From Ilumatobacteraceae bacterium (GTDB lineage: Bacteria > Actinomycetota > Acidimicrobiia > Acidimicrobiales > Ilumatobacteraceae), in contig JANMTV010000051.1 of the NCBI GenBank assembly GCA_031390905.1, positions 2,881-66,880 on the forward strand: a stretch of DNA of 64,000 nt. Reading direction: 5' to 3'. The first letter of the stretch is position 1; the number at the start of each line of letters is the position of its first letter. The position numbers were made by a program, and so were the translations under genes. Under the pieces are notes generated by a model. That model was given only the letters and a program-made list of their open reading frames with translations, was not told where the DNA came from and ran no database searches. Positions 7,333-60,138 of the stretch are shown here, piece after piece.

Positions 7333-7390
7333 TGCGAACTCCGTCGTTCTGGGAGGTATTGCAGCTGTTGCAAGAGGGTGATTTGGGCCG

Positions 7391-7420
7391 AAAAACGAAA
7401 CAACCTCCCGGCTGGGAGGT
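7391..7420 (-). terminator. Intrinsic terminator of the ilvB attenuator
   Basis: Minus strand ACCTCCC-AGCC-GGGAGGT followed by TGTTTCGTTTTT, ~60 bp before ilvB. Confidence 0.85.
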
Positions 7421-7452
7421 CATGGTGCACACGCGGCTATGTCGCCGGTGTG

Positions 7453-7494
7453 CTACCGGATAAGTACTACGAGAGTGTTGGACTCGGCACGCAT
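7453..7494 (-). promoter_or_regulatory. ilvB operon leader peptide MRAESNTLVVLIR
   Basis: ATG CGT GCC GAG TCC AAC ACT CTC GTA GTA CTT ATC CGG TAG: five consecutive Leu/Val/Ile codons just upstream of a terminator. Confidence 0.85.
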
Positions 7495-7555
7495 CGCCGA
7501 CAAGTGTGCCAGAACTCGCGCCAGAACACAAGCGTTCAGTCAATAAGGTGCGGAG

Positions 7556-19824: not shown

Positions 19825-19830
19825 CGATCC

Positions 19831-39977: not shown

Positions 39978-40074
39978 GCCCTACAGGCTACTCGCCGATT
40001 GTTATCGAACGAGACATAATCGGCGTACCAGCCGGTCGTGGACACGACACCGGCCAGCGGCCAAACTATGACCC

Positions 40075-41977: not shown

Positions 41978-41982
41978 TCACC

Positions 41983-43149
41983 ATGACCGCAACCTGTGAA
42001 TACACACCCAGTTCTCCGTTGGGAGAGAGGGCGGCGGCAATCGCACCGCTGGCCGACAAATGGGCAGAATACGCCGACGAGCAGGGCAAACTTGCCCCAG
42101 AACTCGTCGATCAGTTGCACGCCGACGGCCTGTTCGGGATGTGGGTACCACAGGAACTCGGTGGGTCCGAGCTCGGGCCGGTCGAGTCGCTGGAAGTGAT
42201 CGAGCAAATTTCATACGGTGACGCCTCCGCCGGCTGGGTGGTGATGGCCGCCAGCCTGTCGATCGGCACAGCTGGTGCATACCTCAACGACGACGCCGCG
42301 AAGGCACTGTTCAGAGGCGACCGAATGCCGGTGATTGCCGGACAAGGAACTCGGCCAGGCACGGCTGTGACCGAAGGTGACGGGTACCGGCTGAGCGGCT
42401 CGTGGAGTTTCGGCTCCGGGCTCCTGCACAGCACACATGTGCATTCGCTCGGCATCATCCAGGAGACCGGCGAGCCACGGATCTTCGTGACGCCAATCGA
42501 AGACGTCACCCTGCTCGGTAACTGGGACGTACTCGGCCTGCGAGGCACCGGCTCGGTGGACTACTCGATGGATTCCGTCTTCGTCCACGGCGATTACACC
42601 CACTTCGCCGTCACCGAACAGGGCAAGCGGGGTGGCAGCCTCTATCACGTCGGCATCATCGGGTTCGCAGAGATGTGTCATTCGGGTTGGGCTCTCGGTC
42701 TCGGGCGTCGGATGCTCGACGAGCTGGCTGAACTGACCTCGCAGAAGGCCGGCCGAGCCGGCTCGAGCGGTGCCAGCGACTCGTTCGTCGAGGGCTTCGC
42801 CAACGCAGAAGGTACGTTCCGGGCCGCCCGCGCCTTCGTGCACGGAGTCTGGGCGGACGCCGCCGCAACGCTTGCTACCGGCGCACATCTTTCGACCGAG
42901 CAGCACACGTTGATCCGGCTGGCGCTGACCCACGTCACGCACGCGTTACACGAGGTCGCCAACCACGTGTACCTCGCGGCAGGAACCACGTCGCTGCGCC
43001 GCGGCCGGTTGCAGCAGATGATGCGCGACGTGCATGCCGGCACGCAGCACATCACGTCGTCTCCGATGGTCGTCCAGAATGTCGGCCGCATGCTGTCGGG
43101 TGCCACGTCCGGTAAGAAGTGGCAGTTCCTCGACCTCGTCGACGCATGA
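41983..43149 (+). CDS. Acyl-CoA dehydrogenase-like flavin monooxygenase (HsaA-like)
   Basis: GDASAGW, LSGSWSFGSG, NWDVLGLRGTGS, RDVHAGTQH. Confidence 0.85.
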   Translation: MTATCEYTPSSPLGERAAAIAPLADKWAEYADEQGKLAPELVDQLHADGLFGMWVPQELGGSELGPVESLEVIEQISYGDASAGWVVMAASLSIGTAGAYLNDDAAKALFRGDRMPVIAGQGTRPGTAVTEGDGYRLSGSWSFGSGLLHSTHVHSLGIIQETGEPRIFVTPIEDVTLLGNWDVLGLRGTGSVDYSMDSVFVHGDYTHFAVTEQGKRGGSLYHVGIIGFAEMCHSGWALGLGRRMLDELAELTSQKAGRAGSSGASDSFVEGFANAEGTFRAARAFVHGVWADAAATLATGAHLSTEQHTLIRLALTHVTHALHEVANHVYLAAGTTSLRRGRLQQMMRDVHAGTQHITSSPMVVQNVGRMLSGATSGKKWQFLDLVDA

Positions 43150-43799
43150 GTAACGATCGACGACAGTTCGATGCGCTACTGCTCGACATCGGTGACGTGA
43201 TTACCGCCCCGATCTGGGATCAACTCGACGAACTCGAACAGATCACCGGCCGCTGCTTCGTCGGCCGTGGCCCACTCGCTCCCGAAGATGACCAACTCTG
43301 GCGGCGGTACACATCTGGCGAGCTGACCTTTTACGACTACTGGCGTGAGTACGCCACCGCAGCTGGTTACACCGACTGGCGCGACCTGTTCCGGGAACTC
43401 ACGGTCCATCTTCCCCATCGGTTCGGCGATCTCGATGCCTACGCGTTGATGGCTGACGCGCGAGCCGCCGGTTACAAAGTTGGCGTACTCACCAACGACG
43501 GTGTCGGGATCGGCGGTCACGATTTCTTCTCGAATCTTCGGGAGTTCCAACTACTCGATGCCTTCGTCGATGCCCGTCAGTTCGGGTCAGCCAAACCCGA
43601 TCCGGAACCCTATTTACGAGCTGCCGAAGCGCTCGACACGCCGATCGAACGAATCGTCTTTCTCGACGATGCCCAATATTGCATCGACGGAGCCCGCGCT
43701 GTCGGCATGACCGGAGTGTTGGTCGACCCTGTCGACAAGTTGCCGGCGTTCGAACGGACCCGGGCGCTGCTCGGACTATCTCGCGTCTCGATCGTCTGA
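43146..43799 (+). CDS. HAD-superfamily hydrolase
   Basis: LLLDIGDV, GVLTND, KPDPEPY, FLDD. Confidence 0.85.
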   Translation: MSNDRRQFDALLLDIGDVITAPIWDQLDELEQITGRCFVGRGPLAPEDDQLWRRYTSGELTFYDYWREYATAAGYTDWRDLFRELTVHLPHRFGDLDAYALMADARAAGYKVGVLTNDGVGIGGHDFFSNLREFQLLDAFVDARQFGSAKPDPEPYLRAAEALDTPIERIVFLDDAQYCIDGARAVGMTGVLVDPVDKLPAFERTRALLGLSRVSIV

Positions 43800-43845
43800 T
43801 GGGATGCAGGCTTGGTTGCGGGCAGGTTGACGATCCCATGACAGA

Positions 43846-44793
43846 GTGGACGTCGTGACCGACAACGCGTTCCGAGTGGCCGCTGTGCAGGCAGCCCCCG
43901 TCTTTCTCGACGCCGGCGCGTCCACCGACAAGGCGTGCGGCTTGATCGCCGAAGCGGGACGACAGGGGGTGCAACTCGCTGCGTTCGGCGAGACCTGGCT
44001 GCCTGGCTATCCCCGTTGGGTCAACTCCCCGATACACGTCAACCTCAAACGCACGATCGGTGGCCGCTATCTCGATGCCGCGATCACGGTGCCAGGGCCC
44101 GAGACAGAACGGCTCTGCGCTGCCGCCCGAGACGCCGGCATCGATGTCGTGATCGGTGTGGCCGAGCGGGACGCGTTGACGAGTGGAACCGTGTATTGCA
44201 CGCTCGTCTTCATCTCGTCAGACGGTGAGATCATCGGCAAGCACCGCAAGCTCAAGCCGACGTACGGAGAGCGCTTCGCGTGGGGCGAAGGCGACGGGTC
44301 CGGCCTTCGGGCATGGCAGCGGCCATACGCCAGGATTAGTGGACTCAACTGCTGGGAGCACAACATGGTGCTGCCGGGCTACGCCCTGATCGCAGACGGT
44401 ACCCAGGTTCACGTCGCCGCCTTTCCCGGATACGAGAGCACGCGACAACTGGTGCTCTCGCGGGCGTTCGCTTCGCAGGCAGCGGCCTACGTCATCGTCG
44501 CCGGAGGAATCCTCGACGCCAACGACATCGACGACGCCGAGCTGCGAGACGCAATCTCGATGCTCCCGCCCATGACTGGTGATAGCTACATCATCGATCC
44601 GAGCGGCGAGGTGATCACCGGGCCTGCCCTCGGCGAGACGCTGTTGATCGCCGACATCTCGCTGGAAAAGGTGCGCGAGTCGAAAGCGTTGTGTGACACG
44701 GCCGGGCACTACTCGCGGCCCGACGTGCTGCGACTCGTGATCGACCGAACTCCGGCGCGCCGCCTGATCGAGACCGCTGGAGAAGGGTCGTGA
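43846..44793 (+). CDS. Nitrilase (carbon-nitrogen hydrolase)
   Basis: FGETWLPGYP, HRKLKPTYGER, LNCWEH: E-K-C triad; DTAGHYSRPDV. Confidence 0.92.
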   Translation: MDVVTDNAFRVAAVQAAPVFLDAGASTDKACGLIAEAGRQGVQLAAFGETWLPGYPRWVNSPIHVNLKRTIGGRYLDAAITVPGPETERLCAAARDAGIDVVIGVAERDALTSGTVYCTLVFISSDGEIIGKHRKLKPTYGERFAWGEGDGSGLRAWQRPYARISGLNCWEHNMVLPGYALIADGTQVHVAAFPGYESTRQLVLSRAFASQAAAYVIVAGGILDANDIDDAELRDAISMLPPMTGDSYIIDPSGEVITGPALGETLLIADISLEKVRESKALCDTAGHYSRPDVLRLVIDRTPARRLIETAGEGS

Positions 44794-45725
44794 CGCGCTT
44801 CACGGACCTGGTCGGATGCAAGCATCCGATTCAACTGGCCGCAATGTCACGAACGGCCACACCGGCGTTGGCCGCAGGAATCTCCAATCTTGGCGGGCTC
44901 GGCATGTTGGCGATGGGTCGCCCGACCCGAGCAGCGGCGCGGGCCCAGGTCGACGACGTACTTGCACTCACTGACCGCCCGGTCGGCGCCGGATTCATCG
45001 TGCTGTTCCTCGACCGCCAGATCCTTGAAGACGTCGCTGCCAGACTTCCGGTAATCGAATTCTTCTGGGGTTGGCCAGATCCCAAGTTGGTGTTGCCTGA
45101 CGTGATCACCGGATGGCAGGTCGGCACCGTCGATGAAGCCAAGGCTGCCGTTGACGCCGGATGTCAATACGTGGTCGCCCAGGGTGTCGAAGCTGGCGGC
45201 CACGTGCGGGGAGTGATTCCGCTTGCAGAATTGATTCCCGCCGTTCGGGCAGCCGTCGGCATCCCGGTCGTCGCCGCTGGCGGAATCGGTACCGCCGCAG
45301 CCGTGCGTGTTGCCCTCTTGCGCGGCGCCGATGCCGTGCGGATTGGAACACGGTTCGTTGCGACAGTCGAATCAGATGCGCACGATCATTATGTCGATCT
45401 GCTCATCCGATCGACGGCTGCCGACACCGTTCTGACGAGGCGATTCGATGTCGGATGGCCCGATGCACCCGTTCGAGTGCTGACGTCGGCGCTCGTCGCT
45501 GCCGAGCAGTCGCCAGACGGGACGGTCGCCCAAATGGCGATGCCGGACGGATCAATTGCCGAGATCCCGAGGTTCTCGACAACTCCCCCCAACCGTACGA
45601 CGACCGGCAACCTCGATGCCATGGCGCTGTACGCCGGCACCAGCGTCGACGCTGTCACCGGGCGAACCACGCTCGCCAGCGTGATGAACGAACTGCTCGT
45701 CGGCACCAGCCCAGCCGAGGCCTAG
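44790..45725 (+). CDS. Nitronate monooxygenase family flavoprotein
   Basis: PIQLAAM, QGVEAGGH, VAAGGIG, AVRIGTRF. Confidence 0.88.
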   Translation: MTRFTDLVGCKHPIQLAAMSRTATPALAAGISNLGGLGMLAMGRPTRAAARAQVDDVLALTDRPVGAGFIVLFLDRQILEDVAARLPVIEFFWGWPDPKLVLPDVITGWQVGTVDEAKAAVDAGCQYVVAQGVEAGGHVRGVIPLAELIPAVRAAVGIPVVAAGGIGTAAAVRVALLRGADAVRIGTRFVATVESDAHDHYVDLLIRSTAADTVLTRRFDVGWPDAPVRVLTSALVAAEQSPDGTVAQMAMPDGSIAEIPRFSTTPPNRTTTGNLDAMALYAGTSVDAVTGRTTLASVMNELLVGTSPAEA

Positions 45726-45758
45726 GAGCCGGTACAAGACCAGGAGCATCAAACCGAT

Positions 45759-46460
45759 ATGACGAGGACCATCGTGATCACCGGAGCGAACCGAGGGCTC
45801 GGTCTCGCACTCGCACGCGCCTACGCCCACCGGGGCGACAAGGTGATCGCCGGTTGTCGCATGCCGTCAATGGCCAACGAGCTGGCTGCTGTGACGCCGC
45901 ACGTTCACACCCTCGACGTCGGCGATGAACAATCGATCAATGCGTTTGTCACCGCCTTCGGCGATCGCACCGTCGACATCCTGATCAACAATGCAGGCAT
46001 CGACGCCCGCAACCTTGGCGTCGCCGACAGCGACCGTGACGTGCTGACCCAGTCGGGCGATCACATACTGGATCAGATCCGTGTCAACGCCGTCGGACCG
46101 ATGCTCGTAGCCCGAGGTTTGGTCGCCAATCTGCGTCGGTCTGACAGTCCCCGGATCATCAACGTGTCATCGCAGGTCGGCTCGATGGTCGTCGGCGCAG
46201 GCATGGGTCGCGACGTCGGCTACGCCGTGTCCAAAGCGGCACTCAACATGATCACGGTCAAGTTGGCGGCGCGCCTCACGGACGACGGAATCATCGTCCT
46301 GGCGCTTCACCCCGGTTATCTCCGCACCCAAATGGGCGGCACCACTGCCCCCTTGGGTCCTGATCAAGCAGCCACCGAGATCGTGCAGTTGGTCGACAGC
46401 CTCACGATCGACGATTCCGGCAGCTTCAAAAGGTGGGATGGCACCGAGCACCCCTGGTAA
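45759..46460 (+). CDS. Short-chain dehydrogenase/reductase (CsgA-like)
   Basis: ITGANRGLG, LINNAG, YAVSKAALN, LHPGYLRTQMG. Confidence 0.92.
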   Translation: MTRTIVITGANRGLGLALARAYAHRGDKVIAGCRMPSMANELAAVTPHVHTLDVGDEQSINAFVTAFGDRTVDILINNAGIDARNLGVADSDRDVLTQSGDHILDQIRVNAVGPMLVARGLVANLRRSDSPRIINVSSQVGSMVVGAGMGRDVGYAVSKAALNMITVKLAARLTDDGIIVLALHPGYLRTQMGGTTAPLGPDQAATEIVQLVDSLTIDDSGSFKRWDGTEHPW

Positions 46461-46581
46461 CGCCGGTTGGTCAAACCGTGGGATGAGCCGTCCCTGAGCT
46501 GACCGGCAATCGTTCACCGTGTTCGTCACAGCGGGACGCGTCCCTTCCTCGGGAACGGTTCGATACGACATACTGAACCCC

Positions 46582-47664
46582 ATGACGTTCTTACAAAACA
46601 CCTGGTACGTGGCGATGTGGGGGCAGGATCTGGAACCTGGCGAACTGACCCAACGGGTGATTTGCGATCAACCGATCGCTCTGTTCCGGAAGGCCGATGG
46701 AATGGCGGCGGCGATCGCCGACCAGTGTGCTCACCGGTTCGCACCTCTCAGTCGCGGCAAGGTGTGTGGCGACAAGGTCGAGTGTCCCTACCACGGCCTC
46801 CAGTTCGACGAGAACGGGACCTGTGTTGTCAATCCGCACGGCAGCGGTCGAATCCCATCCTCGTTGAACATTCGCTCGTATCCGATTGTCGAACGCCACA
46901 CGATCCTGTGGATCTGGTTGGGTGATCAACCGGCTGATACCAGCCTGATCCCCGACTATTCACATCTCGACGACAACGCCCCCGGGGTCGTGTCGAAGCG
47001 CGACTCGATGGTGATCGATGTCGACTACCGGCTGATGGCAGACAACCTGCTCGATCTGAGCCACGTCAACTATCTTCACGACGGTCTGCTCGGCAACGCC
47101 GAACTGGTCAGTGCCGATGTCGACATCCATCAGGACGGCGACACGCTCTACGTCACGCGCACCTCGCGGAATGTCACACCGCCGCTGATGTTCGACCTGA
47201 TGTACCGCAACGACAGCATGCCGGTCGATACATGGGCCGAGATGCGATGGGATGCGCCCGGTTGTTTGCGCAACCACGCCGGCGTCACGCAACCGGGGGA
47301 AACTCGCGAGCAGGGCATGACGGTGATTGGTTCGCATCTGCTGACTCCGATCTCCGCCACGCAGATGCGCTACCACATCGCTGCCGTTCAACTCGGTGGA
47401 CCTCCTGTCGGCGAAACCGACGCTGAGATTGCCGAGCGACTCAGCACGCTTCGACGATTCGCCTTCGAGCAGCAGGATCTCCCGATGGTGGAGGCTCAAC
47501 AACGGGCGTACGACCGCGCCGGTGGCCCCGAGAATCTGAAGCCGATCATGCTCTCGATCGACGCCGGTCCGCTGCGGGCGCGTCGCATCTTGGAACGCAG
47601 GATTGCCGAGGAAGCAGCACCAGTATCGGTTGTCGTCGGCGGCCGTCAACCTACGCCGGTCTGA
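46582..47664 (+). CDS. Rieske non-heme iron oxygenase, VanA/DdmC (O-demethylase)-like
   Basis: CAHRFAPL and CPYHG (Rieske), DNLLDLSHVNYLH (Fe site), QQDLPMVEAQ. Confidence 0.9.
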   Translation: MTFLQNTWYVAMWGQDLEPGELTQRVICDQPIALFRKADGMAAAIADQCAHRFAPLSRGKVCGDKVECPYHGLQFDENGTCVVNPHGSGRIPSSLNIRSYPIVERHTILWIWLGDQPADTSLIPDYSHLDDNAPGVVSKRDSMVIDVDYRLMADNLLDLSHVNYLHDGLLGNAELVSADVDIHQDGDTLYVTRTSRNVTPPLMFDLMYRNDSMPVDTWAEMRWDAPGCLRNHAGVTQPGETREQGMTVIGSHLLTPISATQMRYHIAAVQLGGPPVGETDAEIAERLSTLRRFAFEQQDLPMVEAQQRAYDRAGGPENLKPIMLSIDAGPLRARRILERRIAEEAAPVSVVVGGRQPTPV

Positions 47665-47686: not shown

Positions 47687-48490
47687 CTACTTGCGGCGAC
47701 GGGGCAATCGGTAGTCGCCGCTTTCGAGCGCCACAGTGAGTTTGCGAGCAGCGGACTGCAGCACGCTGACGTGATGCGACTCGCCGTCGGTGACTCGTGA
47801 CGTCGGACCGATCATCGAGATCGCCGCCACCACCGGACCATTCACCGACGATCGCACAGGAACAGCGAGCGAACTCATTCCGATCTCGGTCTCGTCGATA
47901 CTGCGGGCATACCCGCGCTCACGAACCTTCACGATTTCTGATCGCAGGACATCGGGCACGACGATCGTGTAACCGGTGCTGCGCGGCAGGCCTGCGGCCA
48001 GTCGCGCCTCCAACACCCCGGGGACGAATGCCGCCAACACCTTGCCGGCGCTCGAACGATGGATCGGGCCGCGACGCGAGTTATCGGTTGCGTATCTCAG
48101 TGCGCGAACGCCCTCGACGCGCTCGACGTACACGACGTCGCCGCCGACCGGGATCCCGACCTGTACCGTTTCACCAAGCGCTGTACGTAACTCGACGAGT
48201 AACGGGAGGGCATGCTCGCCTACTGCTGAGCGCCCTGCAGCGAGGTGTCCGTACTCGATCAGCCGCAGGCCAAGCCGGTATTTTCCGGCCTCGGTTCGCG
48301 TCAGCATTCCAGCGTTGGTCAACACGGCGCATGTTCGGTGCGCCGTACTTTTGGCAACGCCGACACGTCGCGCCAACTCACTCAGACTCAGTTCGGGTGC
48401 AGCCGCTAGCGAGTCGAGCACACCCAACGCGATCGTGACCGATTGAAGTGCCGGTTTCTTGGCTACCGACGTGCCGGTGGCGAGAGTCAT
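47687..48490 (-). CDS. IclR family regulator
   Basis: LSELARRVGVAKSTAHR, ERGYA, SSLAVPV, AAISMIGP. Confidence 0.92.
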   Translation of the reverse strand: MTLATGTSVAKKPALQSVTIALGVLDSLAAAPELSLSELARRVGVAKSTAHRTCAVLTNAGMLTRTEAGKYRLGLRLIEYGHLAAGRSAVGEHALPLLVELRTALGETVQVGIPVGGDVVYVERVEGVRALRYATDNSRRGPIHRSSAGKVLAAFVPGVLEARLAAGLPRSTGYTIVVPDVLRSEIVKVRERGYARSIDETEIGMSSLAVPVRSSVNGPVVAAISMIGPTSRVTDGESHHVSVLQSAARKLTVALESGDYRLPRRRK

Positions 48491-48798
48491 ACGGTTCCGA
48501 CGATGATCGAATTAGGATCGACCGTTACCGGGCTCTCGAAGTACTCGACAGTCGGCGAGGCACCGAACCGCTCGGTCAAGCGCTCACGCCACGCCTCGTT
48601 GTACACGGCTTCGGCTGCCGCCTTGGTCTCCCAGAGGTAGACGCCCCCGCCTACGGTGCCACCCTCGCCCAGCAGGTAGTGCTTGCGCAACAGCCCAGGC
48701 AACCCCTGATACGAGGGAGCGCTAGCTTCAAAGGACGCCCGCACCGCGTCAGCCGACATCGCTGAGTCAAGTGGAAAGCGAACGATCGCAATAATCAC
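48487..48798 (-). CDS. YdhR-like small putative monooxygenase
   Basis: YQGLPGLLRKHYL, GGGVYLWET. Confidence 0.75.
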   Translation of the reverse strand: MIIAIVRFPLDSAMSADAVRASFEASAPSYQGLPGLLRKHYLLGEGGTVGGGVYLWETKAAAEAVYNEAWRERLTERFGASPTVEYFESPVTVDPNSIIVGTV

Positions 48799-48866
48799 GG
48801 TGTTGACGTTAGTTCGCTGCGTTCGCCCACGACGAACGCTAGGTCCTGAGCGTCCGACGAACGACG

Positions 48867-49727
48867 TCAGGCCCGAGAATCTATTGATTCCAGGAATCGA
48901 GTCAGCTCGTCGCGGTAACTCGCAGATGTGGGCAGGTACTCACGAATGCCATGCGGCGCACCGGCGACCTCGATGATCCGAGCATGCGGCACACCCTCCT
49001 GAAAGCGCGCCGACTCATCGGGCGTCAGTGCAGGACCCATTGCCGGGTCAGCCCGCAAGATCGTGACCGGCACAGCGATCGGTCGTGCAGGATTCCATCC
49101 GGCGAGCGCCGTGCCATCGATCGCCGTGTCCCACACACCCGGATCGCAGGCGAGGAACGATTCGACCTTGGCGTCGATGGTTGCGGACGAGACTTCGTCG
49201 GACCATCGACCACCACCGGCACCGCGCTGTTCCGAGAGATATGCGCGGACCGCCGCCGGAGATGCGCCAGTGCCCTGCAACCGTTGCATCTCGGATCGCA
49301 AGTACCGGAACACATTGGCGAATGGAGTCGCCGCGAACACGCCGGGTTGCCCGTGGTACAGGGGCGGATCTTCGGCGAACACGCCACTCACGAGGTCGGG
49401 TCGGGCACCCGCCAGATACACGGCAACTGCACCGCCCAGCGAATGGCCCACAACGACAACCGGCTCGGACATCGTTTCGAGCAATGCGATCACGTCGCTG
49501 GCGTAGTGCTCGATGACGTACGTATCGGGCACCCGATCCGACTGGCCGTGACCTCGTAGATCGATCGCCGCGATGTTCCAACGCGGCGACAGACCGTGGC
49601 CGAGTTCCTCGTAGTGCGCCGAGCACGCTGACAGACCGTGGATCAACAACACGTCGCAGTCGGTGTCACTCCCCCATCGGCGCACGCCGAGCGTTGGTCC
49701 CCCAGGTACCGAGAATCGGCTGATCAT
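48867..49727 (-). CDS. Alpha/beta hydrolase
   Basis: LIHGLS, DLRGHGQS, GHSLGG, APHGI; ATGA overlap with amidase stop. Confidence 0.88.
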   Translation of the reverse strand: MISRFSVPGGPTLGVRRWGSDTDCDVLLIHGLSACSAHYEELGHGLSPRWNIAAIDLRGHGQSDRVPDTYVIEHYASDVIALLETMSEPVVVVGHSLGGAVAVYLAGARPDLVSGVFAEDPPLYHGQPGVFAATPFANVFRYLRSEMQRLQGTGASPAAVRAYLSEQRGAGGGRWSDEVSSATIDAKVESFLACDPGVWDTAIDGTALAGWNPARPIAVPVTILRADPAMGPALTPDESARFQEGVPHARIIEVAGAPHGIREYLPTSASYRDELTRFLESIDSRA

Positions 49728-51136
49728 CTGGGGTTCTCTGGTCGGTGATGTGACCATGGCGATGCCGCTTCGAGAGAGCTGGCAACTTGAATCAGAATGT
49801 CGTCGCGACCGTAGGCAGCAGTGAGTTGGACACCGCGAGGCAACCCATCGGACGGCCATCCGAGCGGAAGTGAAATCGCCGGTTGGCCAGTCACGTTGAT
49901 CGGGCGCGTGAAGGCGCTGCCGAGTCCTGACACGTAGTTCGTGAGGTAGTCACCGAGCGGCATCGCCGCTGTCGGCGTGGTCGGGGTGACAAGCAGATCA
50001 AAATCATCCCACCACAACAATGCGCGGCGGGAGATGTCCTGCAGACGACCGATCAGTTCGAACAGATCGACCCCTGACAGGGCGTTGCCTGCCTGCACCA
50101 CCGCCCAGGTCCTCGGTTCGAGATCGGCCTCACCAAGAGGGCGGCCGATCCGGCTCTGCCAACTAGCGGCATCGGCAGCGACCGATACGCCCAGTGCGGT
50201 ACGGGCCGACTGCCACAGTTCGTCTGACGACAATTCAGCTGGAGCCGCGACCTCGACTCGATGCCCCATCGACTCGAGCAATCGAGCCGTGTCTGTGGCA
50301 GCACTGGCGGATTCGCTGTCGACCGTGACACCCTCGGTCTGGCCGGCGTTGAATGCTTCGGTCCAAACGCCAATCCGGAGCACACCAGGGTCGGTACCAA
50401 CGACGGAGGCGAGTGACTCCGAACATCCTGGCGCGGGCCACCAGGGCGACCGGTCTGTGAACAGATCGACGAGTGCAGCGGTGTCACGAACGGTTCGTGT
50501 CAGCACGCCTTCGGAGAACATGCCCGTCGCTGGATCGGTATCGCTGGCAACCACTCGCCCACGCGTCGGTTTCAACCCGACCAGCCCGCACATCGCCGCC
50601 GGTATCCGAATCGACCCCGAGATGTCATTGCCGTGAGCGGCCGGAACGATCCGTGCTGCAATCGCGGCGGCCGAACCACCGGAGGACCCGCCTGGTGACC
50701 GAGACAGATCCCACGGGTTGTGGGTAGGCCCGTAGAGCGTGGGCTCGGTCGTCCCCATCGCAGCAAGCTGCGGGACATTCGTGCGACCAATCGGGATCAG
50801 ACCACCCTGACGCGCTCGCAGCGCAAACCGACTGTCGGTTCGCGCCCGATAGCCGAGGCCGAGCAACGTCGGTACACCGGCGTGATACGACTCACCCGCT
50901 TCACGACCCTTGTAATCCTTGAAGAGGAACGGCACGCCGGCGAACGGTGCATCGTGTTCGATCCGTTCCGCGTCGGCGCGAGCCCGCTCGAACTGACGAT
51001 GAATGACCGCATTCAACAACGGGTTGAGACGTTCGACTCGTTCGATCGCGGCCTCAACCAACTCACGCGGATGCACCTGCCTGCGGTGAATGAGGTCCGC
51101 CAGCGCTGTTGCATCAAACTCGTCGTACCCGTGCAT
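49724..51136 (-). CDS. Amidase-signature family amidase
   Basis: PFLFKD, GRTNVPQ, GGSSGGSAAA, GNDISGSIRIPA. Confidence 0.93.
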   Translation of the reverse strand: MHGYDEFDATALADLIHRRQVHPRELVEAAIERVERLNPLLNAVIHRQFERARADAERIEHDAPFAGVPFLFKDYKGREAGESYHAGVPTLLGLGYRARTDSRFALRARQGGLIPIGRTNVPQLAAMGTTEPTLYGPTHNPWDLSRSPGGSSGGSAAAIAARIVPAAHGNDISGSIRIPAAMCGLVGLKPTRGRVVASDTDPATGMFSEGVLTRTVRDTAALVDLFTDRSPWWPAPGCSESLASVVGTDPGVLRIGVWTEAFNAGQTEGVTVDSESASAATDTARLLESMGHRVEVAAPAELSSDELWQSARTALGVSVAADAASWQSRIGRPLGEADLEPRTWAVVQAGNALSGVDLFELIGRLQDISRRALLWWDDFDLLVTPTTPTAAMPLGDYLTNYVSGLGSAFTRPINVTGQPAISLPLGWPSDGLPRGVQLTAAYGRDDILIQVASSLEAASPWSHHRPENPR

Positions 51137-51148
51137 CGTTTGATTCTG

Positions 51149-51829
51149 TCAGTACGGGACTCGCCCGCCATTGACGAGCATGGTTTGACCCGAGACGAAC
51201 GCCGAGTCGTCTGACATCAAGTAACAGAACGTGCCAAGCAGATCGGCAGGTTGCATCACTCGCCCGAGCGGCGTGCGTGACGGGTCGTACGTGCCGAGGG
51301 TCGCTGACCCTGGGGTCGGAGTGAAGCCAGGGGCGACGCAGTTGACTCGAATGCGGCGTTCGCCGAGTTCGTTCGCCAAGCCACGAGTCAGTGAAACAAC
51401 AGCGCCCTTCGAGGCGACATAGTGGACGAATCCGTGCGATCCGGTGAACGCTGTCTCGGAGGCAACGTTGACGATGCTGGCACCTTCACCCATGTATCGA
51501 ACGGCGGCCCGACTGCACAGGAACGAGCCCTTCACGTTGACCGCGAACATCCGATCCCAATCATCGCCCGTGATGCCCTCGATCGAGCTACGAGTGCCGA
51601 TCAGCGCTGCATTATTGAGAAGCCCGGTGATCGGACCGACAGCGCCGATCTCGGAAAAGACGGCATCGACCTGGTCCTCGTCTGACACGTCACAACGAAC
51701 GTCAGCCCCCGCAGACACGTCGAGCGTGACAACCTCCGCGCCCCGTGCCTGGAACTCTGCCGCAGCCTCCGCCCCAATCCCCCGCGCCCCACCAGTAACC
51801 ACAATCCGCTTGCTCGCCAACGACAACAC
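51149..51829 (-). CDS. Short-chain dehydrogenase/reductase
   Basis: VTGGARGIG, LLNNAA, YVASKGA, RVNCVAPG; start reassigned. Confidence 0.92.
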   Translation of the reverse strand: MLSLASKRIVVTGGARGIGAEAAAEFQARGAEVVTLDVSAGADVRCDVSDEDQVDAVFSEIGAVGPITGLLNNAALIGTRSSIEGITGDDWDRMFAVNVKGSFLCSRAAVRYMGEGASIVNVASETAFTGSHGFVHYVASKGAVVSLTRGLANELGERRIRVNCVAPGFTPTPGSATLGTYDPSRTPLGRVMQPADLLGTFCYLMSDDSAFVSGQTMLVNGGRVPY

Positions 51830-51869
51830 GGCCTCCTCGGTCCCAGTCGATCTCCGGTTCAAAGTCTCG

Positions 51870-53591
51870 TCAGGGGTTGGCTCGTTCGAGGATCTTGACG
51901 ATGCCCCTGGTGCCGTCGACTTCAATCGTGTCGCCGGTGCGGATTCGCTGGGTCGCCACCGAGGTACCGACCACACACGGGATGCCGTACTCACGCGACA
52001 CGGTGGCGGCGTGGGTGAGTGAACCACCGCCGTCACAGACGCAGGCACCGATGATCGCGAACGCCGGCGTCCAGTTCGGCGAGGTGGCTTCGGTGACGAG
52101 GATGTCACCGTCGTCCAGGTCGAACAGTTCCATCGCCGAGACCATCACTTTGGCGGTCCCCGTGTAGGTGCCCGCAGACGCCGGGAAGCCTTTCAGTTCG
52201 GTCGTGTGAATGTCGGACTTGAGAGCGTCGAAGTAATGCTGGTGGATGCCGAAGATCTCGATCAACACAGGATCTTCGATCTTCTCGGGAATCGTCCCGA
52301 CGACCTTTGGAACGGTCGCCCGTTGGATCTGGTAACCGTCGTAGTAGTCGTGGCGTTCGGTGACCATCCCCTGCAGGTTGTTCCACTGCTGCTCACCGTC
52401 ACACACCTCGAGCAACTCGGAGAAGAACAGGAACAGGCCGTCGTCGTACTTGTCGACACCGACCTTCTCGCCGATCGCCAACGCACCCAACCGCATCGGG
52501 ATCGATGCCCGCAGGTCGATGTAGTAGTTGTGATCCTCGTTCCACCATGCGAAGTTGGCGACGGTGTTGATCGCCAACAGTTCGTTGAAGGCACCGAGCG
52601 ACTCGCCATTCAGAATCGAGCGAGCCTCCTCGATTGCCTGATCGCGTTCGGCTTGCGACGCAGCAAGCGAGGCGTCGAAGTCGTGACGGTGCTCGGCCTG
52701 CACGAAGTTGCGCAGCTGACCGAGCGGCGAGGTCTGATCCTCGAGCCATGACGGGATGTTCATGTCGGCGATGCCCTCGGTGCGATGGCCGTACACCTGC
52801 AGGAAGTCGTCGAACTTGGTCAACCACGCAGACGAGTTGCCGCCCGCCGAGCTGAGCGCCGCTCTGATCTGCTCGGGGTCGTGATCGAAATGGTCGGCGA
52901 TGCCGAGCCGCTTGGCCTCGTCGGCCAGATCCCACATCGCTCGGTCGGTCTCCATGATCTTGGAGTCTCGGCCCTGCAGCATCTTGGCGATGTTGCCCGG
53001 GTCGACACCGTTGCCGGCGCACACGCCGTAGAGCTGGAGATAAATCGCCAAGAGCGGATACATGATTTCGAAGTGGATTTCCCAGGCACGCCGCTGAAAC
53101 TGCCACGCGTCACGCATGTACTGCCCGAGTTCAGGCAGCGAGCGACCATCGAAGTCGTACGACTCGAAGTATCCGAGACCGAGGTCGAGTTCCCACTTCC
53201 GTTCCTCCCAGATGGCGTCGAAGTTCTGGAGAAACGGCGGCATATTCTTCTCGATGCGTGCGGCGCGGAAGCCGATCTCCCACTCCGACTTGATCGGGAC
53301 CTCGCCCTCGTATAGAAACGGCCCGCCCATTCGCTGCACAAGTCCTCCAGCCGGCGGGAGCGGCAGTTGATGAGCGGCGAGTTGGGTGCCCCATGCGGCG
53401 TCGCTCACCATCATCATGCCCAACGGCGAGAAACCACGTGGCCAGTGAAAGTCGACGAACCAGAAATGCTGCTCGTCGGCTTTGGTGAACGGCTTGGTCT
53501 GCATCCGCAGCCACGGATTGTCGAGGTGTTCAGGTTTGAAGCCCGGGTACCAGCCGTCAAGGAACTGATCGACGGAGATGATTTCGGCCAT
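51870..53591 (-). CDS. PEP-utiliser swivelling-domain phosphotransferase, phenylphosphate synthase subunit A-like
   Basis: C-terminal TELKGFPASAG, DILVTEATSPNW, GGSLTHAATVSREYGIP (phospho-His); N-terminal substrate domain; no ATP-grasp domain. Confidence 0.82.
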   Translation of the reverse strand: MAEIISVDQFLDGWYPGFKPEHLDNPWLRMQTKPFTKADEQHFWFVDFHWPRGFSPLGMMMVSDAAWGTQLAAHQLPLPPAGGLVQRMGGPFLYEGEVPIKSEWEIGFRAARIEKNMPPFLQNFDAIWEERKWELDLGLGYFESYDFDGRSLPELGQYMRDAWQFQRRAWEIHFEIMYPLLAIYLQLYGVCAGNGVDPGNIAKMLQGRDSKIMETDRAMWDLADEAKRLGIADHFDHDPEQIRAALSSAGGNSSAWLTKFDDFLQVYGHRTEGIADMNIPSWLEDQTSPLGQLRNFVQAEHRHDFDASLAASQAERDQAIEEARSILNGESLGAFNELLAINTVANFAWWNEDHNYYIDLRASIPMRLGALAIGEKVGVDKYDDGLFLFFSELLEVCDGEQQWNNLQGMVTERHDYYDGYQIQRATVPKVVGTIPEKIEDPVLIEIFGIHQHYFDALKSDIHTTELKGFPASAGTYTGTAKVMVSAMELFDLDDGDILVTEATSPNWTPAFAIIGACVCDGGGSLTHAATVSREYGIPCVVGTSVATQRIRTGDTIEVDGTRGIVKILERANP

Positions 53592-53670
53592 GGTGCATGC
53601 CCCCAAGATGTGCGCAGTCGGTTGAGACGTTGGGACAATACAACGGAGGCGACTTGGCGTCCCAGTTTCG

Positions 53671-54498
53671 TCAGGCGTTGTCGTTCAGATCACCGGTGTC
53701 GGTGCGGATGATCAAGTCGCCAAGTGCGTCGTGGATCTTCCCGTTGGTACCCATCACGTTGGCGAGTCCATGGCCGAGGTTGAGTGGGCCGCCGTCGAGG
53801 TCTTCACAGCGACCGCCCGCTTCGGAGATCAGGAGCGACCCGGCCGCCACGTCCCAGGCATACGTTGCGTCGCGTTCGTAAAACGCGTCGATCCGACCAG
53901 CTGCGACATAGGCCAGACATAATGCAGGAGAACCGAGCCCACGTGACCCGCGGGTGTGTTTGTGGAGCGCCGCAATCCGGCGTCCATGAGCGTCGATCTC
54001 GGCTTCGACATCCGACTGGATGCCCGTCGCAACCAGCGACCGACTCAACGTCTCGTTATCGGTCACGGAAAGTCGATCGCCGGACAGCCACGCACCACCA
54101 CCGCGGGACGCCGTGAACAGTTCACCCCGAAACGGTTCGAAGATCGCCCCGGCGACGACTCCCTCAGCGTCCCTTACGGCGACCGACGTGCAGGCAAACG
54201 GGATTCCTGACGCGTAGTTCGATGTTCCGTCGAGCGGGTCGACCATCCAGGTGTAGTCGCCGTTGTTCCCGCCACCGTCTCCTTCCTCACCGAGGATCAC
54301 ATGATCCGGAAATGCTGCGCTGATGACCGAGAAGATCTTGGCCTGAGCAGTGACGTCGGCCCACGTGACGATCGATGCCCGTTCGCTCTTCATCACGACG
54401 TCTTTCGGTCGCTTCAGCCCTTCGATCAGGATTGCGCCACCTGCCCGCGCGGCAGCGATCGCAACCTCGAGCAGTTCGGCTGGTGTTGGTGTGTTCAC
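53671..54498 (-). CDS. Inositol monophosphatase family phosphatase
   Basis: ILGEEG, WMVDPLDGTSNY, WDVAAG. Confidence 0.92.
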   Translation of the reverse strand: MNTPTPAELLEVAIAAARAGGAILIEGLKRPKDVVMKSERASIVTWADVTAQAKIFSVISAAFPDHVILGEEGDGGGNNGDYTWMVDPLDGTSNYASGIPFACTSVAVRDAEGVVAGAIFEPFRGELFTASRGGGAWLSGDRLSVTDNETLSRSLVATGIQSDVEAEIDAHGRRIAALHKHTRGSRGLGSPALCLAYVAAGRIDAFYERDATYAWDVAAGSLLISEAGGRCEDLDGGPLNLGHGLANVMGTNGKIHDALGDLIIRTDTGDLNDNA

Positions 54499-55130
54499 GA
54501 GTCCTCCCGGGCGAGTGCGGCGCGGATCCGATCCACCGAGCCGACAACGTCAGTGATATCGAACCACACGGACGCCAATCCGGCAGCAGCGCCAGCCTCC
54601 ACGTTGTCGTAGTGGTCGTCGGTGAACACGATCTCGTCGGGTTCGAGCCCCATCGCCGAAGCGGCCAACCTGTATCCCTTCGGATGCGGTTTCAGGTATC
54701 CAGTGTGTGACAAGTCGACGATCGGTGAAATCTTCGTGAGCACCGAGATCGATGCTTGCCATTCGGCGCCGTGAAAGTTGGAGATGTCGTTCGTGAGCAG
54801 CGCGACTTGGCGGCCGGATGCACACAATTCGTCGACGAGCGCAGATGTGATCGGACGAACCAGGTGGTCACCACTCGGCTCGAAATAGGCACTCATATAG
54901 CCAGCCAGATCGAGATCAAACCGCGCCGCCTGTTCAGTCCAATACTGACGCTCCGTGATCTCACCGAGTTGGCGAGCGCGCCAGCGATCATCCGCTGGAT
55001 CGAATGGCCCACCGGGAAGCGCTTCTACCGTGACGCCGAGCCGGGGTGCGGCGACCGCCTGCAGTTCAAACGGGGTCAGCAATAGCGGCCCACCGAAGTC
55101 GAACAACATATGGCGCTGTGCGCGGCACAT
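54495..55130 (-). CDS. HAD-superfamily hydrolase
   Basis: LFDFGG, ALLTND, KPHPKGY, FTDD; overlaps IMPase start; start uncertain. Confidence 0.85.
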   Translation of the reverse strand: MCRAQRHMLFDFGGPLLLTPFELQAVAAPRLGVTVEALPGGPFDPADDRWRARQLGEITERQYWTEQAARFDLDLAGYMSAYFEPSGDHLVRPITSALVDELCASGRQVALLTNDISNFHGAEWQASISVLTKISPIVDLSHTGYLKPHPKGYRLAASAMGLEPDEIVFTDDHYDNVEAGAAAGLASVWFDITDVVGSVDRIRAALAREDS

Positions 55131-56618: not shown

Positions 56619-58886
56619 TTAAGTTTCGAGCCGATCGGCGGATTTGATCGCTGCCCACACCTTTTCAGGCGTACAAGGCATCGTCATGTGCCGAACACCA
56701 AGGTGCGCGAGGGCGTCGATCACGGCGTTGTAGACCGACGGGATTCCGCCAACGGTGCCAGACTCGCCAACGCCTTTCGCACCTAACTCGTTGACCCACG
56801 TGGGGGTAGCCATATGCACCAGTTCGAAGCTCGGCAGTTCGGCCGCGGAGATCACCGGGTAGTCGGCGAAGTTGGTGGTCTTCGGGGTCCCATCCTCGTC
56901 GTAGATGATTTCTTCCATCAACGCCTGGGCGACGCCTTGGGCGATCCCACCGTGGATCTGTCCCTCGGCAATCAGCGGGTTGATCAGGGTGCCGGCGTCA
57001 TCGACCGCGATCTGACGGCGCAATCTGACGTGGCCGGTTTCCGTGTCGACTTCGACCACGGCCAAATGGGTACCGAACGGAAATGTCGGCATCGGCGCCG
57101 TGAAGTCGTGGTCTGCGGCGAGCGGTCCGCCATCGGTCGATGCGAGCTCGGCCCAACTGACCGTCCGCGCGGGGGTGCCGGCGACGTGAAACTTTCCTGC
57201 GTCGGCGTCGAGGATCACGTCGTCGGCGGCCGCCTCCAACAGTTCGGCGGCTCGTTCTCGCGCCTGGTCGATCAACTTCGTCGATGCTGCCGCGATTGCC
57301 GAGCCGCCGAGCTGAACGGAACGCGATCCGACCGTGAGTCCGCCGGTGCGGATCTCGTCAGTGTCACCGTGAACCACTTCGATCTGATCCATCGGTACTC
57401 CGGTGCGGTCGGACACGATCATCGCCCACGTTGTGACGTGGCCCTGGCCGTAGGGCGTACAGCCCGTGCGGACCCGGAGCCGACCATCATCGAGTAGTTC
57501 GACGGCGCCGAACTCGGACCCGCCGACGCCAGATGTGATCTCGACGTACGTGGCGAGCCCGATCCCGAGGGCGATGTGATCGCCACCGGCGCGACGAGCG
57601 GCCTGTTCGACGCGAAGTTCGTCGTAGCCGGCGGCCTTCAACGCACGCTCGAGCGATTCCGGGTAGTCGCCGACGTCGTACGGCGTGCCGACGGAGGTCG
57701 TGTACGCCTCCATGAACTTCGGCACCAGGTTGATCCGGCGGACCTGTGCCGGATCAACCTCGATTTCGGCGGCGAACCGATCGACCATGCGCTCGATCGC
57801 AACCGCAGCTTCGGGGCGACCCGCACCGCGATAGGCGGTGATCGAAGCGGCGTTCGTGACAGTCGAAACGCCGGTGAACCCAACGCTGGGAATCTCGTAG
57901 CAGCCCGTCGTCATCCTCATCGTCATCCCGTGCAACACGGCACCCGTCAGCGGGTATGCGCCGGCGTCTTGAATCACATCGAGTTGGTACGCCAGAATCC
58001 GACCGTCGCGCGTTCCACCGATCTTTGCGTACTGGATCTGACCGCGACCCTGTGGCATCGCCAGGAAGTTCTCGCTCCGAGTCTCGGTCCAACGCACGGG
58101 ACGGCCGAGTTGGCGCGCATAGAAACCAAGCGCCACCTCTTCCGGATACGAACGTGACTTGACGCCGAAGCCGCCTCCAACGTCGGGCACGACGACTCGC
58201 ACATCCGACTGCGGCAACCCGTACACGATGGCCAGCAGGTCACGCGTCGGATGGCCCCCCTGACAGGCCGAGTAATGGACGAGTCGGCCTTCCGGAGTCC
58301 AGTAGGCGGCACCGGACCGGGCTTCGATCGGCGCACCACTCAACCGCTGGTTGACGATTCGCTCCTCGACGACAACTTCGCATCCGGAGAAGTCGGCGGT
58401 GTTCGGGGTGCCGATCTTGAGAACCGCGTTCGAGCCCAGCTCAGGGAACAACAGGATCTCGTCCTTGACCGACTGCTCGACGTCAATCACGACCGGGAGT
58501 GGCTCATACTCGACGACGACCAGGTCGGCGGCGTCGGCCCCGGCCTGGCGGCTTTCGGCCACGATCGCCACGACGGCTTCACCGACGTATCGAACTGTGC
58601 CAATCGCCAGGAACGGGCGGCGCATCTCGGCCGCGAAGTTTGGATTGTTGTTCGGATTCAAGCCGATCGATTCGAGGTCGTCGGATGTGAAGATCCGCAG
58701 CACACCAGGCACGTCGAGGGCATCGAGGATGTCGATCGATTCGATTGTGGCGTGGGCCATCGGCGACCGCACGTAGGTGACCCACGCTGCGTTCGGGAAC
58801 TCGAAATCCTCGACGTATTTTCCGCCTTCGGTCAACATCCGTGAGTCCTCGACTCGTACGACTCGATTTCCGAGGATGCTGCCCAT
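56619..58886 (-). CDS. Xanthine oxidase-family molybdopterin large subunit (CoxL form II-like)
   Basis: VGGGFGVK, AYRGAGRPEA, GQGHVTT, GSRSVQ, QIHGGIAQG, KGVGE. Confidence 0.9.
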   Translation of the reverse strand: MGSILGNRVVRVEDSRMLTEGGKYVEDFEFPNAAWVTYVRSPMAHATIESIDILDALDVPGVLRIFTSDDLESIGLNPNNNPNFAAEMRRPFLAIGTVRYVGEAVVAIVAESRQAGADAADLVVVEYEPLPVVIDVEQSVKDEILLFPELGSNAVLKIGTPNTADFSGCEVVVEERIVNQRLSGAPIEARSGAAYWTPEGRLVHYSACQGGHPTRDLLAIVYGLPQSDVRVVVPDVGGGFGVKSRSYPEEVALGFYARQLGRPVRWTETRSENFLAMPQGRGQIQYAKIGGTRDGRILAYQLDVIQDAGAYPLTGAVLHGMTMRMTTGCYEIPSVGFTGVSTVTNAASITAYRGAGRPEAAVAIERMVDRFAAEIEVDPAQVRRINLVPKFMEAYTTSVGTPYDVGDYPESLERALKAAGYDELRVEQAARRAGGDHIALGIGLATYVEITSGVGGSEFGAVELLDDGRLRVRTGCTPYGQGHVTTWAMIVSDRTGVPMDQIEVVHGDTDEIRTGGLTVGSRSVQLGGSAIAAASTKLIDQARERAAELLEAAADDVILDADAGKFHVAGTPARTVSWAELASTDGGPLAADHDFTAPMPTFPFGTHLAVVEVDTETGHVRLRRQIAVDDAGTLINPLIAEGQIHGGIAQGVAQALMEEIIYDEDGTPKTTNFADYPVISAAELPSFELVHMATPTWVNELGAKGVGESGTVGGIPSVYNAVIDALAHLGVRHMTMPCTPEKVWAAIKSADRLET

Positions 58887-59056
58887 CTCGTACCTTCCTC
58901 AACGTTGCTACGGTCAATCCGTATTGATCACGAACCGACTCTGAAGTGTCCCGACGATAGACGTCGCGTCTGGTGCTCAGCCAATGTCGTCCCGTTGACC
59001 GGCACGCTACGACCCGACCACACCAACTCATCCGAAACCGTTTACCAGGGAGAAAC

Positions 59057-59764
59057 ATGACACCCGAGACCCGAGATCGACTCAGCGCGGCGGCGACGGC
59101 AACGCTCGTCGCAGCACTTCAACAACGTGGGATTCGCAGCACGTTTCTGTCGGGTTTGCAGCCTGTTCGTTCGGGTCAACGGATGCTCGGCGTCGCCCAC
59201 ACGTTGCGATATCTCCCGATGCGAGAGGACCTCGCCGATCAGTTCGCTGGGCGTGTCAACGCCCAACGCAAGGCAGTCGAAGCACTCCAGCCCGGCGAGG
59301 TGTTGGTGATCGAGGCGCGTAACGAACCCGACGCCGGAACGATCGGCGACATCTATGCGATGCGGGCGATCCAGTTAGGTGCGGTCGGAATCGTGACCGA
59401 CGGTGCGCTGCGCGACACCGGGGCGCTTCGGGCGATGGAGATCCCGGTCTACCATCGGTCGTCTCACGCGGCGACGTACCGGCGCGCTCACATGCCGCTC
59501 GATCACCAGATCCCCATCGCCTGCGCTGGCGTCACCGTGATGCCCGGTGACATCCTGGTAGGCGACGACGAAGGCGTGGTCGTGATCCCTGCCGCGCTCG
59601 TCGACGAGATCGCCGCAGAAGCCGCCCAGAAGGAACTCGAAGAGGCGTGGGGCATGGAACGAGTCACCGCCGGCGAGAGCACCGATGGGACGTTTCCGAT
59701 CACTCCTGACCGACGCCCCGAGTTCGAGGCCTGGGCCGCCGCCAGGCAGGAAGGTGAACGATGA
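59057..59764 (+). CDS. RraA-like / HMG aldolase family protein
   Basis: GVAHTLRY, VLVIEAR, GTIGDI, VTDGALRD, PGDILVGDDEGVVVIP. Confidence 0.85.
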   Translation: MTPETRDRLSAAATATLVAALQQRGIRSTFLSGLQPVRSGQRMLGVAHTLRYLPMREDLADQFAGRVNAQRKAVEALQPGEVLVIEARNEPDAGTIGDIYAMRAIQLGAVGIVTDGALRDTGALRAMEIPVYHRSSHAATYRRAHMPLDHQIPIACAGVTVMPGDILVGDDEGVVVIPAALVDEIAAEAAQKELEEAWGMERVTAGESTDGTFPITPDRRPEFEAWAAARQEGER

Positions 59765-60138
59765 TGCGGCGCCAATCGTTTGACATACAGTCGCTGACGC
59801 ACGCCAATCCGATACCCGCCGTCACACGTGTTGGGCCGCTCGTGATGTCGAGCATCATCGTGCCGCGCGACCCTGGGGCCACCACGGTGCCGGACACCAT
59901 CGAGGGCCAGCTCACCAACCTGTTCCACCACGTCGGTGAATGCCTCGAAGCCACAAGGGCCGATTGGCACGACATCATCAAAATGACGTTCTACCTACCC
60001 GACCTCGGCCTGCGAGCCGAGTTGAACGTCCCCTGGGTCGAGCACTTCCCTGACCCCGATTCGAGACCAGCGAGGCATACCCAACAGTCGCCAGGCAACG
60101 TCGCCCAGTGTGACTTCATCGCGTTCGTAGCCGACTGA
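59761..60138 (+). CDS. RidA/YjgF family protein
   Basis: DIIKMTFYL, LNVPWVEHFP, RPARHT. Confidence 0.8.
   Translation: MMRRQSFDIQSLTHANPIPAVTRVGPLVMSSIIVPRDPGATTVPDTIEGQLTNLFHHVGECLEATRADWHDIIKMTFYLPDLGLRAELNVPWVEHFPDPDSRPARHTQQSPGNVAQCDFIAFVAD

Follow-up and report, generated by a model that had tools for sequence, protein, structure and literature searches.

An orphan phenol-dikinase-type phosphotransferase component in a conserved operon of uncultured Ilumatobacteraceae

We analysed a 64-kb stretch of DNA (hereafter the window; contig C42:2881-66880, 62% GC) from a 4.26-Mb, 96% complete metagenome-assembled genome (MAG) of an Ilumatobacteraceae bacterium, a soil or freshwater actinobacterium. 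The gene of interest encodes a 573-aa protein (51870-53591, minus strand) which, judging by its paired homologs and predicted fold, is the H (alpha) component of a two-component dikinase of the PpsAB, CreHI, HpeHI and AcvAB type. This protein is a true orphan, since no cognate ATP-binding I component is present in its own genome. What is new here is that the loss of the ATP-binding half is clade-wide and that the genome also encodes five or more further paralogs which likewise have no partner. To our knowledge, every characterised two-component phenol dikinase requires an ATP-grasp partner, and a literature search turned up no description of an H component working without any I component.

The first-pass annotation of this locus had likened the protein to Thauera PpsA along its length by a set of motifs, and all of them are present: FWF at residue 43, WEIHFE at 170, HNYY at 354, PEKIEDP at 435, TELKGF at 464 and a phospho-His motif that reads GGGSLTH527AA. 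The position eight residues before His527 is a Cys, not the Thr/Ser of the T/SxxGGxxxH pattern, and this applies to orphan and paired homologs alike. Pfam assigned the swivel domain PF00391 alone (residues 498-568, E 1e-22), and the precomputed annotation of homologs in a large protein collection combines PF27448 (Rph_4th) with PF00391. The NCBIfam PRK08296 models matched at 158-228 bits, below their cut-offs, and the C-terminal NCBIfam matches were to rifampin phosphotransferase (RPH), PigC/RedH and phosphoenolpyruvate (PEP) synthases. In a PDB search, the best solved relative by sequence was Listeria RPH (residues 570-867, E 1e-31), with His527 aligned to the catalytic His of the enzyme. Similarly, when an AlphaFold2 model of the protein (pLDDT 80, pTM 0.82) was submitted to Foldseek, the best matches were RPH 5FBU/5FBT (587-603 columns, TMq 0.60-0.62, E 7e-17, 18% identity), and no other fold matched beyond the swivel domain. 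Because the RPH match spans the whole length, the protein consists of an RPH-like, rifampin-binding-like substrate-binding domain and a phospho-His swivel domain, with neither room for nor sign of an ATP-binding fold.

The assignment to the dikinase class was made through these structures and through paired homologs. Specifically, eight homologs with 48-51% full-length identity were checked, and in all eight a PPDK_N gene was located immediately downstream or one gene away. Their hosts are Bradyrhizobium, Nocardioides, Nonomuraea, three MAGs and the Acidimicrobiales genomes G139 and G130. The PpsA-type identity claimed at first pass was thus upheld, in the form of a PpsA/CreH/HpeH-type component. 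His527, encoded by the CAC codon at 52011-52013 (minus strand), is the predicted phosphoryl-carrying residue. ATP-dependent phosphorylation of a phenolic hydroxyl (ATP to AMP plus Pi) is a criterion of the two-component dikinase class. The plasmid collection yielded 25-34%-identical H-type relatives alone, which served as paired controls.

No PPDK_N or PpsB-like gene was found in the 64-kb window, as the first-pass annotation had noted, and the absence extended to the remainder of the assembly apart from a PPDK on contig C75. This PPDK was the only match in a search of the 96% complete genome for PPDK_N (PF01326), and tblastn with four PpsB-like queries found nothing besides it. Likewise, a custom hidden Markov model (HMM) built from six PpsB-like proteins and run unfiltered against 34,416 six-frame open reading frames (ORFs) of the genome recovered only the PPDK (E 3e-7). 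The closed genome G018 of the same genus, a single 4.7-Mb contig, carries a 76%-identical ortholog and several further paralog matches, and its only PF01326 match was again the PPDK. Since G018 is closed and yet PpsB-free, assembly gaps do not explain the absence of the partner.

The analysis was extended to 71 related loci encoding proteins 66-99% identical to ours, 46 of which had flanks longer than 3 kb on both sides and 34 longer than 8 kb. None of the 71 contained a PpsB-like gene. Elsewhere in the other genomes with the locus, which are MAGs of uneven completeness, about 8 out of 20 had PPDK-type matches alone. When a stand-alone PpsB was encoded elsewhere in the genome, it adjoined a different, 28-29%-identical paralog in the four genomes checked. 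The orphan status proposed at first pass therefore held: neither the genome itself nor its closed congener has a cognate PpsB-like gene, about 8 of 20 further genomes with the locus also lack one, and the PpsB genes checked in four genomes lie beside other paralogs.

In the tree, 64 partner-less sequences from across Acidimicrobiales grouped together as a monophyletic clade (support 0.91), and the six paired homologs that were included formed its sister group. Their ORFs are intact although the sequences have diverged to 66% identity. The His527 column holds His in 69 out of 70 aligned relatives, with a gap in the seventieth, and the GG loop of the phospho-His motif is invariant. Comparison of the gene with five relatives (the pair with L019 was left out because of a frame offset) gave dN/dS values of 0.07-0.25. 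The invariant His527 and these values indicate that the phospho-His chemistry has been retained. By the tree and the substitution pattern, the clade lost its dedicated partner once and has been under selection ever since. Orphan and paired proteins differed by clade-specific substitutions at 18 positions only, and these gave no clear indication that a docking surface had been lost.

The same genome encodes at least five further partner-less H-type proteins, so at least six in all. These paralogs of 550-600 aa (C35:1730-3493, minus; C385:15960-17753, plus; C190:13990-15747, minus; C129:1-1374, plus; C208:3041-4717, minus) comprise an N-terminal domain without assignment followed by PF00391, that of C129 being recognised by eye only. 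No ATP-grasp gene was found near any of the five. Their neighbours, classified by eye and by motif, included glycosyltransferase, TetR, MerR, luciferase-like, MBL-fold, SelO-like and ABC1/UbiB kinase genes, with no recurrent ATP-binding partner. One of them, an ABC1/UbiB-type atypical kinase gene (by eye; C385:14341-16065, minus), is divergent from the C385 paralog. An 853-aa ORF beside a paralog in the closed G018 was considered as a hidden ATP-binding domain and rejected, as Pfam shows a swivel domain only. A second partner-less paralog, of the C35 type (63-77% identical among relatives), and a divergent MBL-fold gene belong to the same supercluster in many relatives. This paralog lies 8-10 kb downstream of the ortholog in L017, L027, L068, L087, L020, L058, L036 and L015.

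Two other swivel-domain proteins of this genome were recorded. Contig C113 (~5783-8090, minus) encodes a PPDK-like protein without ATP-grasp domain, composed of a swivel domain, a PEP-binding TIM barrel and, at the C-terminus, a domain of 226 aa to which Pfam assigns no family. This C-terminal domain is fused in four genomes of the same genus and occurs as stand-alone ORFs of ~230-310 aa in most other genomes having it; as a correlate of H-type proteins it is suggestive. The second, a short swivel-only ORF with an intact GGMMSHAA motif (C214:~19830-20146, plus), could be either a fragment or a stand-alone phosphocarrier. It follows two extradiol dioxygenase genes, and its neighbours are a PGAM-like histidine phosphatase (RHG motif, by eye) on one side and a Rieske oxygenase on the other.

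The orphan gene belongs to a head-to-tail run of eight minus-strand genes, in which neighbours overlap by 4 nt or are separated by no more than ~80 nt, and whose ORFs and families are as first described: HAD, IMPase, H-type protein, SDR, NylA-like amidase, alpha/beta-hydrolase, YdhR-like protein and IclR. The first gene encodes a HAD-IA hydrolase (54495-55130, minus; alternative GTG start at 55172; PF00702/PF13419). Its motif I reads FDFGG (Asp+2 = Gly) where DxD is usual, as in all homologs, and motifs II (LLTND), III (K) and IV (DD) are present in the alignment. It is 35% identical to an FDFGG HAD located directly behind a PpsA/PpsB pair in Bradyrhizobium (L083). Phosphatases of the Escherichia coli YihX type are also DxG enzymes, and this type would suit substrates whose leaving group is a good one, aryl phosphates for example. 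The IMPase gene (53671-54498, minus; PF00459, 201 bits) has a start that overlaps the HAD stop by 4 nt. Its product can be placed in the inositol monophosphatase (FIG) superfamily by sequence, with intact metal-binding and catalytic motifs DPLDGT and WDVAAG, and it scored below every NCBIfam equivalog cut-off (HisN, SuhB, CysQ).

Downstream of the H-type gene, a classical SDR oxidoreductase (51149-51829, minus; PF13561/PF00106) begins 40 nt past the H-type stop with a GTG start behind a GAGGAGG site; its best PDB matches were FabG, BbsD and phenylethanol dehydrogenase. The amidase-signature protein that follows (49724-51136, minus; PF01425, 288 bits; GGSSGG at residue 149) is closest to the nylon cyclic-dimer (cyclic-amide) hydrolase NylA over its full length (PDB 3A2P, E 1.8e-98). 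The alpha/beta-hydrolase gene (48867-49757, minus; PF12697/PF00561; GHSLG) starts at ATG 49757 or at ATG 49727, the latter overlapping the amidase stop as ATGA. The last two genes encode a YdhR-like small alpha+beta-barrel protein (48487-48798, minus; PF08803, 28.5 bits against a cut-off of 27.1) and an IclR-family regulator (47687-48490, minus; PF09339 and PF01614) whose start overlaps the YdhR-like stop by 4 nt.

The conservation of this arrangement was determined from tblastn searches with the window proteins, GC3-filtered ORFs and called genes, the subclade being defined by at least 72.5% identity. In 36 out of 45 subclade loci, the IMPase gene was found upstream of the H-type gene at a distance of no more than 1.5 kb (12 co-directional, the remainder divergent), and it was beside none of seven paired homologs. 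The SDR gene was directly downstream in 37 of the 45, the amidase gene downstream in 35/42 and the YdhR-like gene in 27/36. The HAD gene, in contrast, was upstream in only 7 out of 61 clade loci. Thus, the idea that the phosphatases are co-conserved with the phosphotransferase applied to the IMPase and failed for the HAD. A molybdenum (Mo) hydroxylase large subunit was encoded upstream in 6/49 clade loci, and none of these genes accompanied the paired homologs. The alpha/beta-hydrolase was kept in a few loci only (L012, L032, L040, L075 and L089), and IclR copies 68-100% identical were present near the locus in relatives. In two relatives with called genes, the core set lies amid genes for the catabolism of aromatics (HpaB, extradiol dioxygenases, FAA hydrolases, luciferase-like and Rieske oxygenases), together with a nitrilase/HAD-SnoaL/SDR block equal to the window at 39-47.6 kb.

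Two further neighbours were observed in relatives. In the subclade of 66-72% identity (L047, L048, L054, L066, L071, L051, L060, L059 and L097, and L098:1520-2689), the gene immediately upstream of either the H-type gene or the IMPase/H-type gene pair resembles the MetE catalytic domain (PF01717). Another MetE-like gene adjoins the second paralog in G018, and a Zn-ADH gene is divergent from the MetE-like gene. In one MAG, a PhoX alkaline phosphatase gene (L056:8110-9603, plus) is located directly upstream of a 68%-identical H-type gene; PhoX was not found beside the H-type gene at loci other than L056.

Aerobic systems that combine a dikinase, a phosphatase and oxidative enzymes without a phenylphosphate carboxylase have been described, namely CreHI, HpeHI/AcvAB with the HAD phosphatases HpeD/AcvF, and a 3-hydroxypyridine cluster (PMC12167813; bioRxiv 10.1101/2022.04.28.489975; 10.1101/2020.01.08.898148). 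Because aerobic catabolism by phosphorylation and dephosphorylation is established, the missing carboxylase and the oxygen-dependent setting of our operon are not anomalous. The first-pass proposal of an undescribed phosphorylation/dephosphorylation module accordingly has to be narrowed: the module type is known, and the partner-less H component is what is new. The hydroxyphenylethanone dikinases HpeHI of Rhodococcus rhodochrous GD02 and AcvAB of Sphingobium SYK-6 share the RPH-like substrate-binding domain and the swivel His with our protein. They also operate in aerobic aromatic catabolism, as here, and have a HAD phosphatase (HpeD/AcvF) in the cluster. Unlike them, our locus has no HpeI/AcvB ATP-grasp gene genome-wide and no biotin carboxylase genes, its linked phosphatase is of the IMPase family, and the enzymes that accompany it are an SDR and an amidase. 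On its own, HpeH transfers phosphate from 4-phosphoacetophenone to acetovanillone (PMC12167813). An Acv-type cluster is also carried by a Rhizobium plasmid in the plasmid collection.

The CreHI system of Corynebacterium glutamicum resembles our proposal in being actinobacterial and aerobic and in phosphorylating a phenol. In that pathway, the side chain is oxidised by a cytochrome P450 and then by dehydrogenases, and a phosphohydrolase removes the phosphate last. CreI is present there, whereas our operon has no P450 or aldehyde dehydrogenase and a conserved amidase instead. CreHI initiates the catabolism of 4-methylphenol (PMC12167813). The alpha subunit of Thauera aromatica PpsABC shares the two-domain architecture of our protein and contains a catalytic His. 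When alone, this subunit shows phenol/phenylphosphate exchange. In contrast to the operon described here, the Thauera pathway is anaerobic and includes PpsB, PpsC and phenylphosphate carboxylase. No CBS (PpsC) or UbiD-type protein was found among the operon and the scanned flanking genes, no genome-wide search for PpsC or UbiD being made. The His mechanism of PpsA is summarised in PMC12167813. RPH (PDB 5FBT/5HV1), the sole solved structure that matches the whole 573-aa protein, has the same His motif; however, it is a single chain with an N-terminal ATP-grasp domain of ~310 aa and acts in antibiotic resistance, not in catabolism.

Two clusters share another feature with our locus, the proximity of a PpsA-like gene to a molybdopterin hydroxylase of the xanthine dehydrogenase family. 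The 3hpd cluster for 3-hydroxypyridine of Ensifer adhaerens HP1 also encodes maleamate-pathway amide-cleaving and hydrolase enzymes. Its PEP-utilizing protein and "PPDK" gene are essential for the molybdenum hydroxylase step, with amide-cleaving steps after it (10.1101/2020.01.08.898148). A Thermomicrobium roseum plasmid likewise carries PpsA-like, PpsB-like and xanthine dehydrogenase-family genes together. Both clusters include a PpsB-like gene. Our locus, by contrast, has no adjacent Mo-hydroxylase gene other than that of the large subunit, and its amidase belongs to the amidase-signature type.

We tentatively favour, at somewhat less than even confidence, a reading in which the operon is a Cre/Hpe/Acv-type 'phospho-masking' catabolic route whose H protein works partner-free through aryl-phosphate/phenol exchange. 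The IclR regulator would control the operon, and the hydroxyl of the substrate, which we infer to be an aromatic or N-heteroaromatic amide or lactam, would be carried as a phosphate ester. His527 would pass the phosphoryl group to or from this hydroxyl. The SDR and the NylA-like amidase would act on the masked intermediate, joined in some genomes by the alpha/beta-hydrolase and the YdhR-like protein. The IMPase-family enzyme could then cleave the ester at the end, as could the DxG-type HAD in the nearest relatives. The H protein would make use of the partial reaction that PpsA and HpeH run alone, the phospho-His-mediated exchange of phosphoryl groups between aryl phosphates and free phenols. 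In this way, a phosphorylated pathway product, or another phospho-donor, would hand phosphate on to the incoming substrate, and the phosphatase would clear the remainder. Both mechanisms suggested at first pass, ATP-independent exchange and aryl-phosphate breakdown, are possible.

Several points weigh against this partner-free route. Exchange alone gives no net phosphate input, so a primary donor would still be needed and none was identified, and any loop that recycles phosphate would lose it to the phosphatase of the operon. The likeness to the characterised PpsA, CreH and HpeH is indirect, through paired homologs and RPH structures. Finally, a PPDK is present in every genome of the genus with H-type proteins, which makes ATP-grasp help in trans possible.

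This last point leads to the explanation that the protein has remained a dikinase dependent on ATP, with the ATP-grasp function contributed in trans by the N-terminal domain of PPDK or, where present, by the PpsB of another paralog pair. The C75 PPDK is the sole PF01326 match in its genome. Within the genus, PPDK was found in 13/13 genomes with H-type proteins, while three of the six genomes without them lack any PF01326 match; this difference (Fisher p ~0.02, calculated by hand) is confounded by completeness and genome size and gives weak support. A loose partnership is chemically plausible, given that the HpeH/HpeI complex is merely transient (PMC12167813). However, the N-domain of PPDK comes tethered to the swivel domain of that enzyme, is only ~26-34% identical to PpsB-type proteins over ~100 residues and has no precedent of acting in trans, and the tight adjacency of the A and B genes in 8/8 paired homologs is an argument for a dedicated partner as the normal requirement. 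We regard help in trans as unlikely. A donor of a different kind, loading His527 or supplying the aryl phosphate, seems to us still less probable, be it a MarK-type kinase, PEP via the C113 PPDK-like protein, or acetyl or carbamoyl phosphate. MarK has been documented as a non-orthologous substitute for AcvAB/HpeHI (PMC12624787). The C113 protein combines a swivel domain and a PEP-binding TIM barrel without ATP-grasp domain, and its C-terminal domain was found in 12 out of 18 genomes tested and was absent from G002, which has no H-type protein. Nevertheless, the conserved neighbourhood contains no such gene, the C113 fusion does not extend beyond the genus, and His-to-His transfer between two swivel domains is without precedent.

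The module could also serve to degrade or scavenge external aryl or organophosphates, with His527 taking the phosphoryl group, the phenol being freed for catabolism and the phosphatases releasing inorganic phosphate. The tight linkage of the IMPase to the H-type gene and the DxG-type HAD in the window would fit such a role, as would PhoX directly upstream in L056 and the PGAM-type histidine phosphatase adjoining the stand-alone swivel ORF on C214. Yet a phosphatase alone would suffice for this purpose, the PhoX adjacency was found at one locus only, and the setting is IclR-regulated aromatic catabolism, not a phosphate-starvation regulon, which makes scavenging rather improbable. Lastly, the protein might have lost phosphotransfer altogether, as a relic after PpsB loss or by re-use as a binding or regulatory protein, because dikinase activity would not be expected to survive once the partner had been lost. 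The intact ORFs across the 64 diverged sequences, the invariance of His527 and the GG loop, the low dN/dS and the conserved operon position all speak against it, and we consider it very improbable indeed. Taken beyond this operon, the partner-free route raises the possibility, which we hold to be doubtful, that partner-less H-type proteins constitute a class of stand-alone phospho-histidine phosphotransferases, acting as an aryl phosphate/phenol shuttle or with a donor other than ATP-grasp-bound ATP. If this were true, pathways could keep their intermediates phospho-masked without spending two ATP equivalents per molecule.

The H-type operon may form one catabolic supercluster with the neighbouring plus-strand operon of the window (39075-47664), which is kept alongside the H-type locus in the relatives L096 and L097. 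This neighbouring operon includes genes for a nitrilase (43846-44793), a nitronate monooxygenase (44790-45725), an SDR (45759-46460) and a Rieske/VanA_C oxygenase (46519-47664), all on the plus strand. On the other side lies the molybdopterin large subunit of a xanthine-dehydrogenase/CO-dehydrogenase-family hydroxylase (56619-58886, minus; PF02738/PF20256/PF01315), beside 58973-60138 (plus). No gene for a flavin adenine dinucleotide (FAD) or 2Fe-2S subunit adjoins it. RraA-like aldolase and RidA-like genes flank the large subunit, and this trio recurs near the locus in L097.

Two-component phenol dikinases have lately been recognised as entry points to the aerobic catabolism of lignin-derived and other aromatics. 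A catalytic His under purifying selection in partner-free genomes implies that the phosphoryl group comes from a different donor or else that partner-independent exchange has a physiological role, and either outcome would alter the annotation of many database genes for a "PEP-utilizing enzyme". A possible yield would be ATP-independent aryl-phosphate transferases for biocatalysis. For the organisms themselves, abundant uncultured Ilumatobacteraceae, the operon suggests a route of amide or lactam catabolism that has yet to be characterised.

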